Both the position numbers and the translations under genes were made by a program. The notes under the pieces were generated by a model that saw only the letters and a program-made list of their open reading frames with translations, was not told where the DNA came from and did not search any database. From NCBI RefSeq assembly GCF_053078305.1, contig NZ_CP166879.1: a stretch of 64,000 nucleotides of DNA. One strand, 5' to 3'. Shown here piece after piece: positions 25,393 to 61,977 of the stretch; the first letter of the stretch is position 1, and each line of letters opens with the position of its first letter.

Positions 25393-26403
25393 ATGAAGGC
25401 TGCAGTTGTTACGAAGGATCATCATGTTGACGTTACGGATAAAACACTGCGCTCACTGAAACATGGCGAAGCCCTGCTGAAAATGGAGTGTTGTGGTGTA
25501 TGTCATACCGATCTTCATGTTAAGAATGGCGATTTTGGTGACAAAACCGGCGTAATTCTGGGCCATGAAGGGATTGGTGTGGTGGCAGAAGTGGGTCCAG
25601 GTGTCACCTCATTAAAACCAGGCGATCGTGCCAGCGTGGCGTGGTTCTACGAAGGATGCGGTCATTGCGAATACTGTAACAGTGGTAACGAAACGCTCTG
25701 CCGTTCAGTTAAAAATGCCGGATACAGCGTTGATGGCGGGATGGCGGAAGAGTGCATCGTGGTCGCCGATTACGCGGTAAAAGTGCCAGATGGTCTGGAC
25801 TCGGCGGCGGCCAGCAGCATTACCTGTGCGGGGGTCACCACCTACAAAGCCGTTAAGCTGTCAAAAATTCGTCCCGGGCAGTGGATTGCTATCTACGGTC
25901 TTGGCGGTCTGGGTAACCTCGCCCTGCAATACGCGAAGAATGTCTTTAACGCGAAAGTGATCGCCATTGATGTCAATGATGAGCAGTTAAAACTGGCAAC
26001 CGAAATGGGTGCAGATTTAGCGATTAACTCACGCACCGAAGACGCCGCCAAAATTGTGCAGGAGAAAACCGGTGGCGCTCACGCTGCGGTGGTAACAGCA
26101 GTAGCTAAAGCTGCGTTTAACTCGGCAGTTGATGCAGTCCGTGCAGGTGGTCGTGTTGTGGCTGTCGGTCTGCCGCCGGAGTCTATGAGCCTGGATATCC
26201 CACGTCTTGTGCTGGATGGCATTGAAGTGGTCGGTTCGCTGGTCGGCACGCGCCAGGATCTAACTGAAGCCTTCCAGTTTGCGGCCGAAGGCAAAGTGGT
26301 GCCGAAAGTCGCCCTGCGTCCGTTAGCGGACATCAACACCATCTTTACCGAGATGGAAGAAGGCAAAATCCGTGGCCGTATGGTGATTGATTTCCGCCGC
26401 TAA
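25393..26403 (+). CDS. adhP: Zinc-dependent alcohol dehydrogenase, propanol-preferring
   Basis: 336 aa from [11 protein letters not shown]; zinc-ligand motif GVCHTDLH and Rossmann GLGGLG. Confidence 0.95.
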
Positions 26404-26493
26404 GAGGCCTTTGCTGCGACTGCCAGTCCTGGTGTCGCAGCATCGCACACTCTCCAACATGAAATGGCTAAATGGATTATTGTTGCGTAGGAA

Positions 26494-26528
26494 GGAACAA
26501 TAATGATAGTGTTCCCAGTGAAGGAACA
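26494..26528 (+). promoter_or_regulatory. Candidate operator: GGAACA-N10-TGTTCC palindrome plus a third GGAACA half-site upstream of yddM
   Basis: Hexamers at 26494-26499 and 26523-26528 with inverted partner at 26510-26515, 20-55 bp upstream of the HTH-regulator start. Confidence 0.35.
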
Positions 26529-26549
26529 CTACTGAGAGTAAAGACACTA

Positions 26550-26834
26550 ATGAAAATGGCCAATCATCCCCGCCCGGGGGACATTATTCAGGAATCACTG
26601 GACGAACTTAATGTCAGCCTGCGCGAGTTTGCCAGAGCAATGGAAATTGCGCCCTCAACGGCAAGCCGATTGCTGACCGGAAAAGCAGCTTTGACGCCTG
26701 AAATGGCAATTAAACTTTCCGTGGTGATCGGCAGTTCGCCGCAAATGTGGCTGAATCTGCAAAACGCCTGGAGTCTGGCAGAGGCTGAAAAAACGGTGGA
26801 TGTGTCGCGATTACGCCGTCTGGTTACGCAATAA
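26550..26834 (+). CDS. yddM: HigA-like HTH (XRE family) DNA-binding protein
   Basis: 94 aa from [45 protein letters not shown], a helix-turn-helix pattern. Confidence 0.85.
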
Positions 26835-26835
26835 A

Positions 26836-27040
26836 AAATGGCACCTTATAAAGCGCCATTTGAAACTGATGACAAATGCAACATTGCCTGATGCGCTACG
26901 CTTATCAGGCCTACACGTTCACTGCAATCTATTGTATTTGAAGGGTTTTCATGCCGGATAAGGCATTCACGACGCATCCGGGATGAACAAAGCCCACGTT
27001 GTCTACAATATGAAAATGGCGCCTTTTACAGCGCCATTTT
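26836..27040. repeat. REP/BIME cluster flanked by two near-identical hairpins (bidirectional terminator region)
   Basis: REP-like units GCCTGATGCGCTACGCTTATCAGGCCTAC and TGCCGGATAAGGCATTCACGACGCATCCGG; hairpins around aaatggc(g)c...gcgccattt at both ends. Confidence 0.75.
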
Positions 27041-27061
27041 CAGCTTAAAGTTCAATAGAGA

Positions 27062-53590: not shown

Positions 53591-55737
53591 CTACGAGAAC
53601 ATGAACTTCACTCTGGTCTCATCATTACCGATATCATCATCAGTATTACTATCCGTATCATTAGTGACTAAAGTGTTCAGGACAGTGGGTTGCAGTGTCG
53701 GTACCGGTGTCCCCGGACTCCCCCCACCATTAAGATTTATCTTCGGCCCCACTATATCCACGCCGCCCGGCTGAATAACGATAAACGAGCCACCCACCTT
53801 CAGGCTTATCCGGCTGCTGCTCTCCAGCACGATATCCCCGTCCACCTTTATCCCCAGCGCGCCACTCACCTTCCTCGCCAGGTCCCCCTTCACCACCAGG
53901 CTGTGTTTCCCCTCCACCAGACTGATATGGTTCCCCGTCGTCTTATGCTCCTGCTTCCCTTCCACCGTCACTTTACGGTCGTTTCTGACGTACAGACCGT
54001 CATCGTGACTCACGCTCACCGTCCGGTCATTCGTCACCTTCAGAGTCTGGTCATTACGTACTGTGATACGCCGGTCGTTCGCCACCGTGATACTCTGGTC
54101 GTGGCCCCCTCTTTTTTTGTACCGACCTGAACCGTCTGGCCCTTCACCACCGTTATCTTCTGGTCGTTACCAATGGTTTCCGTGTGGTCATGCTTCACGT
54201 CCGTCGTCCGGTCGTTGAGCACTTCCGTATCCATGTTCTTCTGCGCATGGATATACACCTGCTCATTACTGGTGGCGTCTTCAAACCGCAGCTCGTTAAA
54301 TCCGCTTCCTTTATAGGTTTTTGACCGGATGGTCATCTGCGTCTTCGTTCCCGGCAGGTCGCCCGGCGAACGGTTGTCCTCATGGTACGTCCGCCCCATG
54401 ATTATCGGCTGGTCCGGGTCGCCGTTCAGGAAGTCCACTATCACCTCCTGACCCACCCGCGGTATCGCCAGATTACCGAACCCCGGCCCCGCCCACGCCT
54501 GCGATACACGCACCCAGCATGAACTCGCCTCCGTCATCCCGTGATAACGGTCCCAGTGGAACTTCACCCGTACCCGGCCATGTTCATCGCAGAAGATTTC
54601 CTCTCCCGCAGGCCCGGTGACAATGGTGCTCTGTGGCCCGTCCACCTTCGGTTTGCTTTGCAGCCGTGGACGCCACGTCCGGTCTGCCGGTATCACCTCT
54701 AACTGATTTCCCAGTGTGGTTCCTCTCCCCTGGCTGCCGTGCAACGCCTGCGGCTGGCTTCCTGACAGTATGCTCTGTACCACCTGCCATTCACGGTTCA
54801 GCATCTTCTGCGGATGCCCCGTCAGCGTAAACCGCGTTCCCGGCCACAGCTTCGGTGAATTACTCTGCCCTGTGGCCTTTTCCGCATCACTGCGCAGGCT
54901 GTCCATCTGATACAGCGTGAAATCCTTGCCGTGCTGCTCATCCTTGAACCTTCCCGGATAATCAAATATCTCGTACTGCGCGTGCTGTCCGTTCAGCCTC
55001 TCACCCTGCTGTTCGTATATCCCCGGCCAGTCCGGCACCTTAAACGTGTAATCCTGACTCTGCACCGACGACGGGCGGACATGCGCCTCATAACGGAACA
55101 TACTGAGACACTCCGTCTCCGCTCCTGCCGATGTGTCCGGGTTAAACGGAAGCTCTCCCGCCTGTGACAGCCCCGCCACATCGTCGCACAGCGTCAGCTT
55201 CTGCTCCGGGCTGTCCGCCGCAAACCGCTCAAAGAAGAAAATCCCCTCCTCCGCCCACAGCCGGGACAGAAACGCCAGGTCGCTCTCTCCGTACTGGACA
55301 CAGAACTCCCGCGCCGGATGGTCCTCATAAAACAGCGGCGTCCACTCCGTGACGCCGTTCTCGTTCAGTAACGTGGCCGATATCGTCCGGATATCCTGCT
55401 GCTGAAAAATACGAAAGTTCTGCCGCAGCCCGCACCGCCATAACGGCGGCTCAATACGCAGGTGATAACGCATCTGCCAGCCGTTGTTCTCCTGCATGCC
55501 AAAGCCCGCCACCACGCCAGTGACATAACGCAGCGGAATGACGCCCTGCCAGATGGTCAGCGTTGCGTTCTTCTCCAGCAGCATCTCCGCCGTCTGCATA
55601 AAAGAGTCGCTGGCAACATCCACACTCATCACAAACGGATAAGACTGGTTCTGGATTAACCTGAAATTCACCACTGCAAAGGTGTCCGGCTCCTGGCCGT
55701 CAACCTCCAGCGTAAAGCGAAGACCTTTTAAGGACAT
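53591..55737 (-). pseudogene. vgrG: vgrG (T6SS spike) copy 1, frameshifted
   Basis: ORFs 54040..55737 and 53591..54085 are consecutive VgrG segments in different frames; shift maps to the C5 run at 54105-54109 (N-frame KKEGATT, C-frame GGHDQSITVANDRR; copy 2 reads KKEGGHDQ). Confidence 0.75.
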
Positions 55738-60012: not shown

Positions 60013-61977
60013 TTAATCCAGATCAATATCTGCGCCGAAAATATTGATTTTATCTTTTCCTTCAATCTGGATACTTTTACCATTGAGAATGATAGTACCG
60101 TCCTTATTCATTTTCAGTAAGCATTCACCGACTTTAATGGTGAGGCTGTTGGTAACTGTCAGGCTGTAATCTTCTCCAACTTTAATATCCTGGGATTTCA
60201 CGACTTCTTCGGTATCTTTTCCTATTATCTTACTGATTTGATCGTTCCCTACATCCTTGTGACGATCGTGGGTAACATCCAGCCGCTGATCGTTTTGTAC
60301 CGTAATGGTCTGGTCATTCGCCACTGTCACTTTCTGGTCATGACCACCTTCCTTTTTGCTCCCCACATTCACCGTCTGGCCCTTCACCACCGTTATCTTC
60401 TGGTCGTTACCAATGGTTTCCGTGTGGTCATGCTTCACGTCCGTCGTCCGGTCATTCAGCACTTCCGTATCCATGTTCTTCTGCGCGTGAATATAGACCT
60501 GTTCCTTATCTGTGGCGTCCTCAAAGCGCAGCTCGTTAAATCCGCTTCCTTTATAGGTCTTCGACCGGATGGTCATTTGTGTCTTCGTTCCCGGCAGGTC
60601 GCCCGGCGAACGGTTGTCTTCATGGTATGTGCGTCCCGTCACAATGGGCTGGTCCGGGTCGCCGTTCAGAAAGTCCACTATCACCTCCTGACCCACACGC
60701 GGTATCGCCAGATTACCGAACCCCGGCCCCGCCCACGCCTGCGATACACGCACCCAGCATGAACTCGCCTCCGTCATCCCGTGATAACGGTCCCAGTGGA
60801 ACTTCACCCGTACCCGGCCATGTTCATCGCAGAAGATTTCCTCTCCCGCAGGCCCGGTGACAATGGCGCTCTGTGGCCCGTCCACCTTCGGTTTGCTTTG
60901 CAGCCGTGGACGCCACGTCCGGTCTGCCGGTATCACCTCTAACTGATTTCCCAGCGTGGTTCCTCTCCCCTGGCTGCCGTGCAGCGCCTGCGGCTGGCTT
61001 CCTGACAGTATGCTCTGTACCACCTGCCATTCACGGTTCAGCATCTTCTGCGGATGCCCCGTCAGCGTAAACCGCGTTCCCGGCCACAGCTTCGGTGAAT
61101 TACTCTGCCCTGTGGCCTTTTCCGCATCACTGCGCAGGCTCTCCATCTGGTACAGCGTGAAATCCTTGCCGTGCTGCTCGTCCTTGAACCTTCCCGGATA
61201 ATCAAATATCTCGTACTGCTCCAGCTGTCCGTTCAGGTTCTCACCCTGCTGCTCATACATCCCCGGCCAGTCCGGCACCTTAAACGTGTAATCCTGGCTC
61301 TGCACCGACGACGGGCGGACATGCGCCTCATAACGGAACATACTGACACACTCCGTCTCCGCTCCTGCCGATGTATCCGGGTTAAACGGAAGCTCCCCCG
61401 CCTGTGACAGCCCCGCCACATCGTCGCACAGCGTCAGCTTCTGCTCCGGGCTGTCCGCCGCAAACCGCTCAAAGAAGAAAATTCCCTCCTCCGCCCACAG
61501 CCGCGCCAGAAACGCCAGGTCCGACTCCCCGTACTGCACACAGAACTCCCGCGCCGGATGGTCCTCATAATACAGCGGCGTCCACTCCGTGACGCCGTTC
61601 TCGTTCAGTAACGTGGCCGATATCGTCCGGATATCCTGCTGCTGGAAGATACGGAAGTTCTGCCGCAGCCCGCACCGCCATAACGGCGGCTCAATACGCA
61701 GGTGATAACGCATCTGCCAGCCGTTATTCTCCTGCATGCCAAAGCCCGCCACCACGCCGGTGACATAACGCAGCGGGATGACGCCCTGCCAGATGGTCAG
61801 CGTCGCCTTCTTCTCCAGCAGCATCTCCGCCGTCTGCATAAAAGAGTCGCTGGCAACATCCACACTCATCACAAACGGATATGACTGGTTCTGGATTAAC
61901 CTGAAATTCACCACTGCAAAGGTGTCCGGCTCCTGGCCGTCAACCTCCAGCGTAAAGCGCAGACCTTTTAAGGACAT
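60013..61977 (-). CDS. vgrG: VgrG (T6SS spike protein), copy 2, intact
   Basis: 654 aa; N-terminal about 545 aa near-identical to copy 1, followed by gp5-like repeats (VTVANDQTITVQNDQRLDVTHD…). Confidence 0.88.
   Translation of the reverse strand: MSLKGLRFTLEVDGQEPDTFAVVNFRLIQNQSYPFVMSVDVASDSFMQTAEMLLEKKATLTIWQGVIPLRYVTGVVAGFGMQENNGWQMRYHLRIEPPLWRCGLRQNFRIFQQQDIRTISATLLNENGVTEWTPLYYEDHPAREFCVQYGESDLAFLARLWAEEGIFFFERFAADSPEQKLTLCDDVAGLSQAGELPFNPDTSAGAETECVSMFRYEAHVRPSSVQSQDYTFKVPDWPGMYEQQGENLNGQLEQYEIFDYPGRFKDEQHGKDFTLYQMESLRSDAEKATGQSNSPKLWPGTRFTLTGHPQKMLNREWQVVQSILSGSQPQALHGSQGRGTTLGNQLEVIPADRTWRPRLQSKPKVDGPQSAIVTGPAGEEIFCDEHGRVRVKFHWDRYHGMTEASSCWVRVSQAWAGPGFGNLAIPRVGQEVIVDFLNGDPDQPIVTGRTYHEDNRSPGDLPGTKTQMTIRSKTYKGSGFNELRFEDATDKEQVYIHAQKNMDTEVLNDRTTDVKHDHTETIGNDQKITVVKGQTVNVGSKKEGGHDQKVTVANDQTITVQNDQRLDVTHDRHKDVGNDQISKIIGKDTEEVVKSQDIKVGEDYSLTVTNSLTIKVGECLLKMNKDGTIILNGKSIQIEGKDKINIFGADIDLD

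Follow-up and report, generated by a model that had tools for sequence, protein, structure and literature searches.

YddM of Escherichia coli, a HigA-family antitoxin without a partner toxin, and its predicted operator pair

Among the described systems with which the present locus can be compared, the HigB–HigA toxin–antitoxin module of the Proteus vulgaris plasmid Rts1 is the most instructive. Its two operators, O1 and O2, overlap the −35 and −10 elements of the hig promoter, and HigA alone represses strongly (PMC12266136). In crystal structures of HigA–DNA complexes, one HigA dimer occupies each palindrome (bioRxiv 10.1101/2021.03.04.434028), and Arg40 provides the sole base-specific contact, to the G of TGTA (PMC12266136; bioRxiv 10.1101/2021.03.04.434028). 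Here we describe the yddM gene and the gap of 146 bp (26404–26549) between it and adhP in a stretch of Escherichia coli DNA of 64,000 nucleotides (contig NZ_CP166879.1 of RefSeq assembly GCF_053078305.1; hereafter the window, numbered from its first letter). On the strength of sequence comparison, the region very probably holds the promoter, the operators and the antitoxin gene of an ancient chromosomal HigB–HigA operon of the Rts1 type, from which the toxin gene higB has been lost, and YddM would repress its own transcription.

Like YddM, GraA of the Pseudomonas putida GraT–GraA module belongs to the HigBA-family proteins, has a helix-turn-helix (HTH) spacing of ~35 Å (PMC6393540) and, as proposed for YddM, represses alone. 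The GraA operator, however, is a single 33-bp site with a contiguous central palindrome (TAACGTTA), to which two dimers bind cooperatively on opposite faces, whereas the window contains two separate palindromes with 7-bp spacers (N7). Orphan antitoxins have been catalogued in Klebsiella, Bartonella and Mycobacterium (review PMC7354431), and there, as for yddM, a canonical module has degraded, the toxin being lost first and the antitoxin persisting; unlike those cases, the ancestral and derived states of yddM segregate within one species at known frequencies, and the ancestral operator pair is retained. The HigA of the E. coli K-12 pair ygjN–ygjM does not appear when YddM is compared with PDB sequences at E ≤ 1e-3, and that pair sits at a different locus. 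It shares with the system described here the family name HigB–HigA and a RelE-fold toxin, but belongs to a different subfamily with a 138-aa HigA.

The yddM gene and the structure of its protein are already known, and an orphan antitoxin with an autoregulatory operator is a well-understood class; no new kind of system is at issue. The present analysis adds an assignment of the operators from their Rts1 counterparts, counts of each toxin state among E. coli genomes, a set of rearranged operator alleles, and the divergence of the toxin-less promoter. YddM, listed in K-12 as an "uncharacterised transcription factor", is thereby explained as the surviving antitoxin of a HigBA module. The features on which the argument rests are as follows.

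26481–26499, no strand: predicted operator O1, TGTTGC-GTAGGAA-GGAACA, a 19-bp imperfect palindrome (one-mismatch match, conservation, Rts1 register)
26483–26488, plus strand: candidate −35 element TTGCGT, within the left half of O1 (placed by comparison with the hig promoter of Rts1)
26505–26512, plus strand: candidate −10 element GATAGT (26505–26510), or extended TGnTAGTGT (26504–26512), overlapping the left edge of O2 at the same position as TATAGT of Rts1
26510–26528, no strand: predicted operator O2, TGTTCC-CAGTGAA-GGAACA, a 19-bp perfect palindrome (zero-mismatch match, conservation, Rts1 register)
26529–26549, plus strand: leader of 21 nt at the former place of higB (alignment to the higB 5′ end)
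26550–26834, plus strand: yddM, encoding a 94-aa HigA-family antitoxin, an Xre-type HTH repressor (TIGR02607, PF01381, identity to 2ICP/2ICT)

YddM and its missing toxin

YddM scores 93.7 bits against the HigA equivalog model TIGR02607 (cut-off 47.7) and 39 bits against PF01381 (HTH_3; cut-off 23), and by these matches it is a HigA-family antitoxin. It is 100% identical over all 94 residues to chain A of PDB entries 2ICP and 2ICT, deposited as "antitoxin HigA", whereas in this genome the identical protein stands without a partner toxin. The deposited protein is presumably that of E. coli CFT073, a lineage that we would expect to carry the toxin. Between YddM and Rts1 HigA (104 aa versus the 94 of YddM; PDB 4MCX and 6CHV), the alignment is gapless over residues 7–87 (E = 1e-18). 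Ser23, Thr37, Ser39, Arg40 and Lys45 are kept in YddM, and the two proteins differ in the recognition region at positions 34, 36 and 38 (Thr34Ala, Ala36Ser and Val38Ala).

A preliminary description of this locus had stated that the gap holds no toxin-sized open reading frame (ORF), only a 10-codon frame, and the ORF list agrees on both counts; the frame (26503–26535), which spans the predicted −10 element and O2, is most unlikely to be a gene. The tblastn search proposed there has given nothing meaningful: with four HigB toxins as queries and permissive settings, the best match within 26380–26570 has E = 0.26 on a tiny database, and a toxin remnant at the protein level was rejected as a candidate. 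An annotated toxin adjacent to yddM, which was to count against that description, is absent from both the nearest RefSeq relative (strain A16) and K-12. With no toxin ORF, no tblastn signal and no toxin annotated in the nearest relatives, yddM encodes an orphan antitoxin and is not part of a complete type II toxin–antitoxin module.

The toxin is found at exactly this place in other genomes (5,426 complete E. coli genomes were counted and, outside E. coli, one genome was scanned per species). A gene for a 92-aa HigB toxin lies precisely between adhP and yddM in 1,331 of the 5,426 genomes, and a toxin-less spacer of the window's kind in 4,075. The HigBA module is thus present in about a quarter of E. 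coli genomes, Nissle 1917 and ATCC 25922 among them. RefSeq annotates the product as a RelE/ParE-family toxin of 92 aa in ATCC 25922, STN0717-11, RMDEC465 and many other strains, and its stop codon overlaps the yddM start as ATGA (loci L001, L002, L006–L008 and L010–L028 among others). The protein belongs to PF05015 (HigB), matches Rts1 HigB at E = 1e-31, and keeps the C-terminal D-Y-H and His54. As in Rts1, the operon in these orthologous loci is toxin-first, with a HigB of the same length that is ~56.5% identical by tblastn.

Outside E. coli, the toxin likewise stands ahead of the yddM homologue in E. albertii, in two other Escherichia lineages, in 13 Citrobacter species, and in Cedecea, Buttiauxella, Pluralibacter, Enterobacter spp., Chimaeribacter and Erwinia; from Escherichia to Pluralibacter and Enterobacter, the toxin–antitoxin pair adjoins fdnI. 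Because the toxin stands at the same spot across related genera, in synteny with fdnI, the HigB–HigA operon has, by this comparison of genomes, long resided in the chromosome, and the toxin-less state is the derived one. The locus in the window thus differs from its Rts1 counterpart in having no toxin and in being chromosomal and syntenic with fdnI, not plasmid-borne.

Intact toxin genes are themselves subject to decay. Among the 1,331 toxin-bearing genomes, 545 (~41%) carry a 1-nt deletion of the sequence type 131 (ST131) kind that frameshifts higB, a G being lost at about codon 33 (strain S2, L003:1086–1087). Elsewhere higB has decayed independently and the antitoxin survives: by an internal deletion between GGCG repeats in Citrobacter sp. 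FP75 (L009), by frameshift in C. portucalensis and Xenorhabdus lircayensis (L015 and L029), and by 5′ truncation in X. khoisanae and Chimaeribacter californicus (L030 and L032).

The operator pair and the candidate promoter

Immediately upstream of yddM, the preliminary description placed a palindromic motif of three half-sites, GGAACA, TGTTCC and GGAACA, at 26494, 26510 and 26523. These positions (26494–26499, 26510–26515 and 26523–26528) and the 146-bp length of the gap are exact, and the motif is real, but a fourth, degenerate half-site, TGTTGC (26481–26486), had been missed. The four half-sites make up two 19-bp palindromes with N7 spacers, O1 and O2, which lie 10 bp apart and share the consensus TGTTSC-N7-GSAACA; this gives a concrete predicted operator for YddM. 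The composite GGAACA-N10-TGTTCC-N7-GGAACA has a single occurrence in the 64 kb and no match in 100 shuffles. At 0–1 mismatch, TGTTCC-N7-GGAACA is found in the window solely at 26510 and 26481, side by side; no second operator-like site is present there, the other matches having 2 mismatches and being no more numerous than expected by chance.

In 28 loci the same layout, TGTTGC-N7-GGAACA, N10 (N9 in 4 of the 28) and TGTTCC-N7-GGAACA, is found ahead of higB or, in alleles that lack higB, ahead of yddM, and in every intact operon the motif precedes higB at the homologous position, in keeping with the earlier suggestion of an autoregulatory operator. Over these loci the half-sites carry 1.86 bits (O1) and 1.88 bits (O2) per position, compared with 0.58 and 0.89 bits for the respective N7 spacers and 0.28 bits for a control segment of 19 nt further upstream, and the operators persist where the rest of the spacer is only ~58% identical between alleles. 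C6 and G14 are invariant, and position 5/15 tolerates G or C. Two Chimaeribacter species have a perfect TGTTCC as the left half-site of O1, and O1 is symmetric (TGTTGC/GCAACA) in L024, L026 and L028.

That the motif arose by chance, or acts as an RNA hairpin or terminator and not as a protein-binding site, is barely credible. A terminator scan does flag 26532–26506 on the minus strand, with an 11-pair stem and a T-rich tail, but no minus-strand gene ends there. It is the bases of the half-sites that are conserved, all 28 O2 sites having C5/G15, without covariation, and 26404–26549 matches no Rfam family at a relaxed threshold. The motif always stands upstream of higB or yddM, and the conservation of the O1 and O2 half-sites, together with the absence of the composite from 100 shuffles, argues that it is not a product of chance.

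The Rts1 hig promoter, which reads TATTGCAC-ATC-GTGTAATA, then 11 bp ending in TATAG, then TATTACAC-ACC-ATGTAATA, provides the register. Its operators, TATTGCACATCGTGTAATA-11-TATTACACACCATGTAATA, and those of the window, TGTTGCGTAGGAAGGAACA-10-TGTTCCCAGTGAAGGAACA, share a common 19-bp frame, T-R-T-T-x-C-N7-G-x-A-A-Y-A, and are 11 (Rts1) or 10 (window) bp apart. C6 and G14 are present in both, and the Arg40 contacts of Rts1 HigA, mapped onto the promoter sequence, fall on positions 6 and 14 of the 19-mer. The half-sites differ (TGTTCC in the window versus TATTAC in Rts1), and the changes at residues 34, 36 and 38 of YddM plausibly account for the different outer half-site bases. In addition, a distance of ~35 Å separates the HTH motifs in the dimer of E. 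coli HigA (PMC6393540), which fits TTCC/GGAA centres 11 bp apart.

The same alignment bears on another division of the motif, in which the functional operator would be the central GGAACA-N10-TGTTCC with an auxiliary third half-site, or in which two dimers would share the central palindrome on opposite faces in the manner of GraA. The central pair is perfectly symmetric and nearly invariant between alleles, and GraA, a relative of HigA, uses a central palindrome together with non-specific distal sites (PMC6393540). All four half-sites are, however, equally conserved in sequence, and the central pair is split by a spacer of N10 or N9, whereas N7 never varies. Rts1 O1 and O2, which take one dimer per palindrome, match the N7 units in a base-for-base alignment. 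The N7 frame also reproduces the 8-bp distance between the inner C/G contacts of Rts1, but the N10 frame would put these contacts 13 bp apart. Moreover, a natural inversion of O1, described below, turns the central-left half-site into GCAACA. We therefore regard the central arrangement as very doubtful: because of the Rts1 register, the invariance of N7, the equal conservation of the four half-sites and the natural variants, GGAACA-N10-TGTTCC is, on this sequence evidence, simply the place where the two operators adjoin, its GGAACA belonging to O1 and its TGTTCC to O2, and the N7 palindromes are the probable functional unit.

By analogy with Rts1, the −35 and −10 elements of the yddM promoter are probably TTGCGT and GATAGT. 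In Rts1 the −35 sits in the left half of O1, as the candidate −35 does in the window, and in both systems a −10-like xATAGT ends in the T that forms the first base of O2. The G at position 5, which spoils the left half of O1, makes the TTG of the presumed −35 (TTGCAC in Rts1, TTGCGT here). The inter-operator spacer has the consensus nTaaTgaTAg over the 28 loci, with T and A at 1.8 and 1.5 bits, and a site for RNA polymerase holoenzyme has been located upstream of yddM by genomic systematic evolution of ligands by exponential enrichment (Genomic SELEX; PMC3946193). A start of yddM at the in-frame ATG at 26472, which would yield a 120-aa ORF, was rejected: both operators and the predicted −10 would lie inside the extension, and the orthologues start MKMANH. 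We note that toxin-bearing loci of several genera share a further motif, TTTGCG-N(6-8)-GCTTTCC, seen as cctgttttgcgagacgctttccgcaa, ~90 nt upstream of O1 (L001:832–881, with equivalents in L006–L028); it does not occur in the toxin-less allele.

In the model that we favour, one YddM dimer would bind each palindrome, O1 and O2, with Arg40 of each HTH reading the inner C:G pairs (positions 6 and 14), which lie about one helical turn apart. Dimers on both operators would occlude the ancestral toxin–antitoxin promoter and silence yddM. Because no toxin is there to sequester YddM or to modulate it, the circuit would reduce to simple negative autoregulation, holding YddM at a low, steady level.

Toxin-less alleles and their origin

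The toxin-less promoter occurs in more than one arrangement, and the following features of the window enter into the comparison.

26413–26441, no strand: inverted repeat GCTGCGAC...GTCGCAGC just 3′ of adhP (sequence, alignments)
26442–26480, plus strand: promoter-distal DNA particular to the toxin-less allele (~58% identity to the matching DNA of toxin-bearing E. coli alleles)
26477–26503, no strand: extended palindrome TTATTGTT-[11 nt]-AACAATAA with 8-bp arms (alignments with the type-2 allele)
26491–26499, plus strand: direct repeat GAAGGAACA, copy 1 (alignment)
26520–26528, plus strand: direct repeat GAAGGAACA, copy 2 (alignment)

In the type-2 toxin-less allele (strain H15), the 11-nt centre of the extended palindrome is flipped, and the 19-bp O1 is the exact reverse complement of that in the window: TGTTGCGTAGGAAGGAACA becomes TGTTCCTTCCTACGCAACA (window 26477–26503 versus L050:537–563). 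The flip removes the TTG of the predicted −35 and leaves GCAACA as the central-left half-site; 1,056 records fall in the 80–90% identity band that matches this allele. In the short allele, a 29-bp deletion between two GAAGGAAC direct repeats (L049, L051 and L052) joins the left part of O1 and the right part of O2 into a single hybrid operator, and the predicted −10 is gone; ~180 records cover less than 80% of the spacer query in the way of this allele. The inversion keeps the palindrome and the deletion remakes a hybrid N7 operator, so that the natural variants respect the 19-bp unit. In K-12 the last half-site reads GGAACG. One species thus presents four natural states of the circuit (intact, frameshifted, deleted toxin, and deleted toxin with a flipped or fused operator), a convenient series for asking how toxin–antitoxin autoregulation is rewired after loss of the toxin.

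The hairpin loop after adhP in the window (GCCAGTCCTGGTG) matches the type-2 allele, O1 matches type 1, and the K-12 loop reads GCCATGTTCGGG (26413–26441 versus L004 and L050); from this pattern the spacer of the window looks like a recombinant mosaic. Only 3 records are at least 99% identical to the window over 26200–27060. The three short-allele strains inspected also have an IS200/IS605 tnpA between yddM and fdnI.

The inverted repeat at 26413–26441 is common to toxin-bearing and toxin-less alleles and forms the left border of a diverged segment. From this hairpin to the yddM ATG, outside the operators, toxin-less and toxin-bearing E. coli are ~58% identical, no closer than E. coli is to Citrobacter. 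Nucleotides 1–101 of yddM, by comparison, are identical between the two kinds of allele, and the toxin-bearing STN0717-11 differs from the window by one base in yddM. The toxin-bearing promoters of E. albertii and E. coli are 93–98% identical, so this spacer does not normally evolve fast. By these measures the toxin-less promoter region appears too diverged for a simple recent deletion within a resident toxin-bearing allele. A combined reading, which we consider rather unlikely, would make the toxin-less allele (a promoter region of ~110 bp) an ancient, long-term balanced polymorphism or an import, with palindrome-mediated rearrangements retuning the promoter and selection acting on the expression of an orphan antitoxin that had acquired a host function.

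Searches for another source of the spacer returned nothing but E. coli records by distant blastn against plasmids, and no match in phages. The plasmid matches comprise the same intergenic region (some in chromosome-sized records), the toxin-bearing allele's operator region and, on two plasmids of 65,126 bp each (H129 and H130), 92 bp identical to the adhP–yddM spacer; the PLSDB "plasmid" records of 4.8–4.9 Mb (H127, H128 and H133) are evidently chromosomes. Short-word blastn of the spacer against the window and all fetched loci gave chance words only, including a 10–11-nt resemblance to the yddM start: 26457–26475 holds ATGAAATGGCTAAAT, which resembles ATGAAAATGGCCAAT at chance level (E = 1–5). 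A contig labelled Clostridium sp. CMCC3677 (L036, NZ_JAMQHS010000132.1, 214 bp, coverage 1.09) shares 104 nt at 99% identity with the promoter and 5′ end of the toxin-less yddM of E. coli, and almost certainly stems from contamination with E. coli DNA.

A possible deletion junction can be drawn in two ways. MAFFT draws the junction at two ATGAA motifs; a simple ATGAA/ATGAA junction was set aside as a distinct candidate, being indistinguishable from a junction between the CAC codons for His7 and His92 of higB. A CAC(His7)/CAC(His92) deletion predicts AGACAC joined to TGATGAAAATGG, which is the type-2 allele exactly. Aligned to the ribosome-binding site and codons 1–7 of higB, 19 nt of the leader (26529–26547) give a shuffle p = 0.016, and the local alignments are otherwise not significant. 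These matches hint weakly that the 21-nt leader may be a decayed higB ribosome-binding site and codons 1–7, joined to the last higB codon (CAC) and the stop.

Retention of yddM and neighbouring features

The antitoxin gene is full-length in 5,408 of the 5,426 complete E. coli genomes (99.7%), and WP_000781370.1 is annotated in every E. coli record inspected, be it toxin-bearing, frameshifted or any of the three toxin-less alleles. Compared with seven Escherichia alleles that encode the identical protein next to an intact or frameshifted toxin gene, yddM of the window shows 1–11 synonymous and no nonsynonymous differences; two more divergent Escherichia alleles show 6 and 19 synonymous differences and one nonsynonymous difference each. 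All 8 segregating sites among six toxin-less yddM sequences are synonymous, which is unlikely under neutrality given 68 synonymous and 214 nonsynonymous sites. Retention of yddM is well supported, and its near-universal full-length state is a stronger argument than the synonymous pattern. Of the earlier proposal that the locus is a toxin–antitoxin remnant kept as a regulator, two parts accordingly stand, the remnant (HigB is present in orthologous loci) and the retention; regulation beyond YddM itself draws on published K-12 reports.

The same data speak to the view that antitoxin and operators form a functionless remnant drifting to decay without selective value. Toxin-first decay with a surviving antitoxin is common and is repeated here (the 545 ST131-type genomes and loci L009, L015, L029, L030 and L032), and alleles expected to weaken the promoter, the O1 inversion and the 29-bp deletion, segregate freely. 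Such drift is nonetheless improbable: yddM is full-length in 99.7% of genomes although ~75% have no toxin and a further 10% have a frameshifted one, the sampled toxin-less alleles contain no nonsynonymous change, and every toxin-less allele seen, the short one excepted, has intact O2 half-sites.

Alternatively, YddM may have been domesticated as a transcription factor and kept for control of other genes in trans, a proposal that is compatible with autorepression and would extend it; we put it forward tentatively, as somewhat short of an even prospect. Chromatin immunoprecipitation with exonuclease digestion (ChIP-exo) has established that YddM binds DNA in vivo in K-12, with a derivable motif (PMC6237786). 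A single-cell screen by CRISPR interference (CRISPRi) reports new yddM regulatory connections consistent with prior binding sites (bioRxiv 10.64898/2025.12.20.695731), and genetic-interaction profiles tie yddM to stress regulators (PMC9283627). In addition, yddM is a core gene with an invariant protein. Conservation does not, however, require a role in trans, the same YddM sequence serving strains with an intact toxin, and the 64-kb window holds no second operator-like site beyond the chance two-mismatch matches.

A role in anti-addiction or immunity, in which orphan YddM would neutralise HigB arriving on plasmids or by recombination and could repress the incoming promoters, appears quite improbable. 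It is widely proposed for orphan antitoxins (review PMC7354431), and HigB homologues occur on 99 Escherichia plasmid records. Genuine plasmids, however, lack the chromosomal type of HigB: its three near-identical matches are in "plasmid" records of 252 kb, 386 kb and 4.9 Mb that are apparently chromosomal DNA, and all other plasmid HigBs are less than 60% identical to the chromosomal partner toxin. The operator half-sites of the Rts1 type differ from those of YddM (TATTAC versus TGTTCC), and P. vulgaris HigB–HigA does not bind E. coli hig operators, a statement that may concern the other E. coli hig locus (PMC12266136).

Several results weigh against the autorepressed operon that we propose. 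A sigma-70 consensus scan found no promoter at its threshold, the hexamers being weak (TTGCGT matches at 3 of 6 positions), and the promoter positions therefore rest on homology with Rts1. An intact yddM is kept both in the type-2 allele, where the predicted −35 lacks its TTG, and in the short allele, which lacks the predicted −10; either some lineages can do without expression from this promoter, or yddM is transcribed from other promoters or by read-through from adhP as well. Finally, of the 8 synonymous polymorphisms, only 3 occur exclusively in toxin-less alleles; direct evidence for purifying selection after toxin loss is accordingly thin (p ~0.01), and recombination with toxin-bearing alleles could inflate it.

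The genes around the locus are arranged in the order maeA, adhP, yddM and then the convergent fdnI, the adhP stop ending at 26403 and the yddM ATG standing at 26550. The neighbouring features are the following.

25393–26403, plus strand: adhP, alcohol dehydrogenase, the upstream neighbour (ORF list; a 1011-nt coding sequence in the RefSeq annotation of matching E. coli records)
26835–26861, no strand: hairpin terminator 3′ of yddM, copy 1 of a duplicated 27-nt hairpin (terminator scan, repeat comparison)
27013–27039, no strand: terminator hairpin copy 2, 89% identical, adjoining the fdnI end (repeat comparison)

Between the two hairpin copies lie ~150 bp of DNA resembling repetitive extragenic palindromic (REP) elements. 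The yddM–fdnI gap measures 49–50 bp in strains S2 and H15 and 406 bp in K-12, and in others it contains IS200/IS605; the terminator hairpin seems to be an insertion hotspot. Within the REP-like insert, 26907–26949 on the minus strand gives a sub-threshold Rfam match to the small RNA ES036 (CssrF), at 30.7 bits versus a gathering score of 37.6, which is probably REP similarity. Elsewhere in the window, an identical 19-mer, TGCGCCTCATAACGGAACA, stands at 55082–55100 and 61322–61340, 6,240 bp apart, and suggests a duplicated segment.

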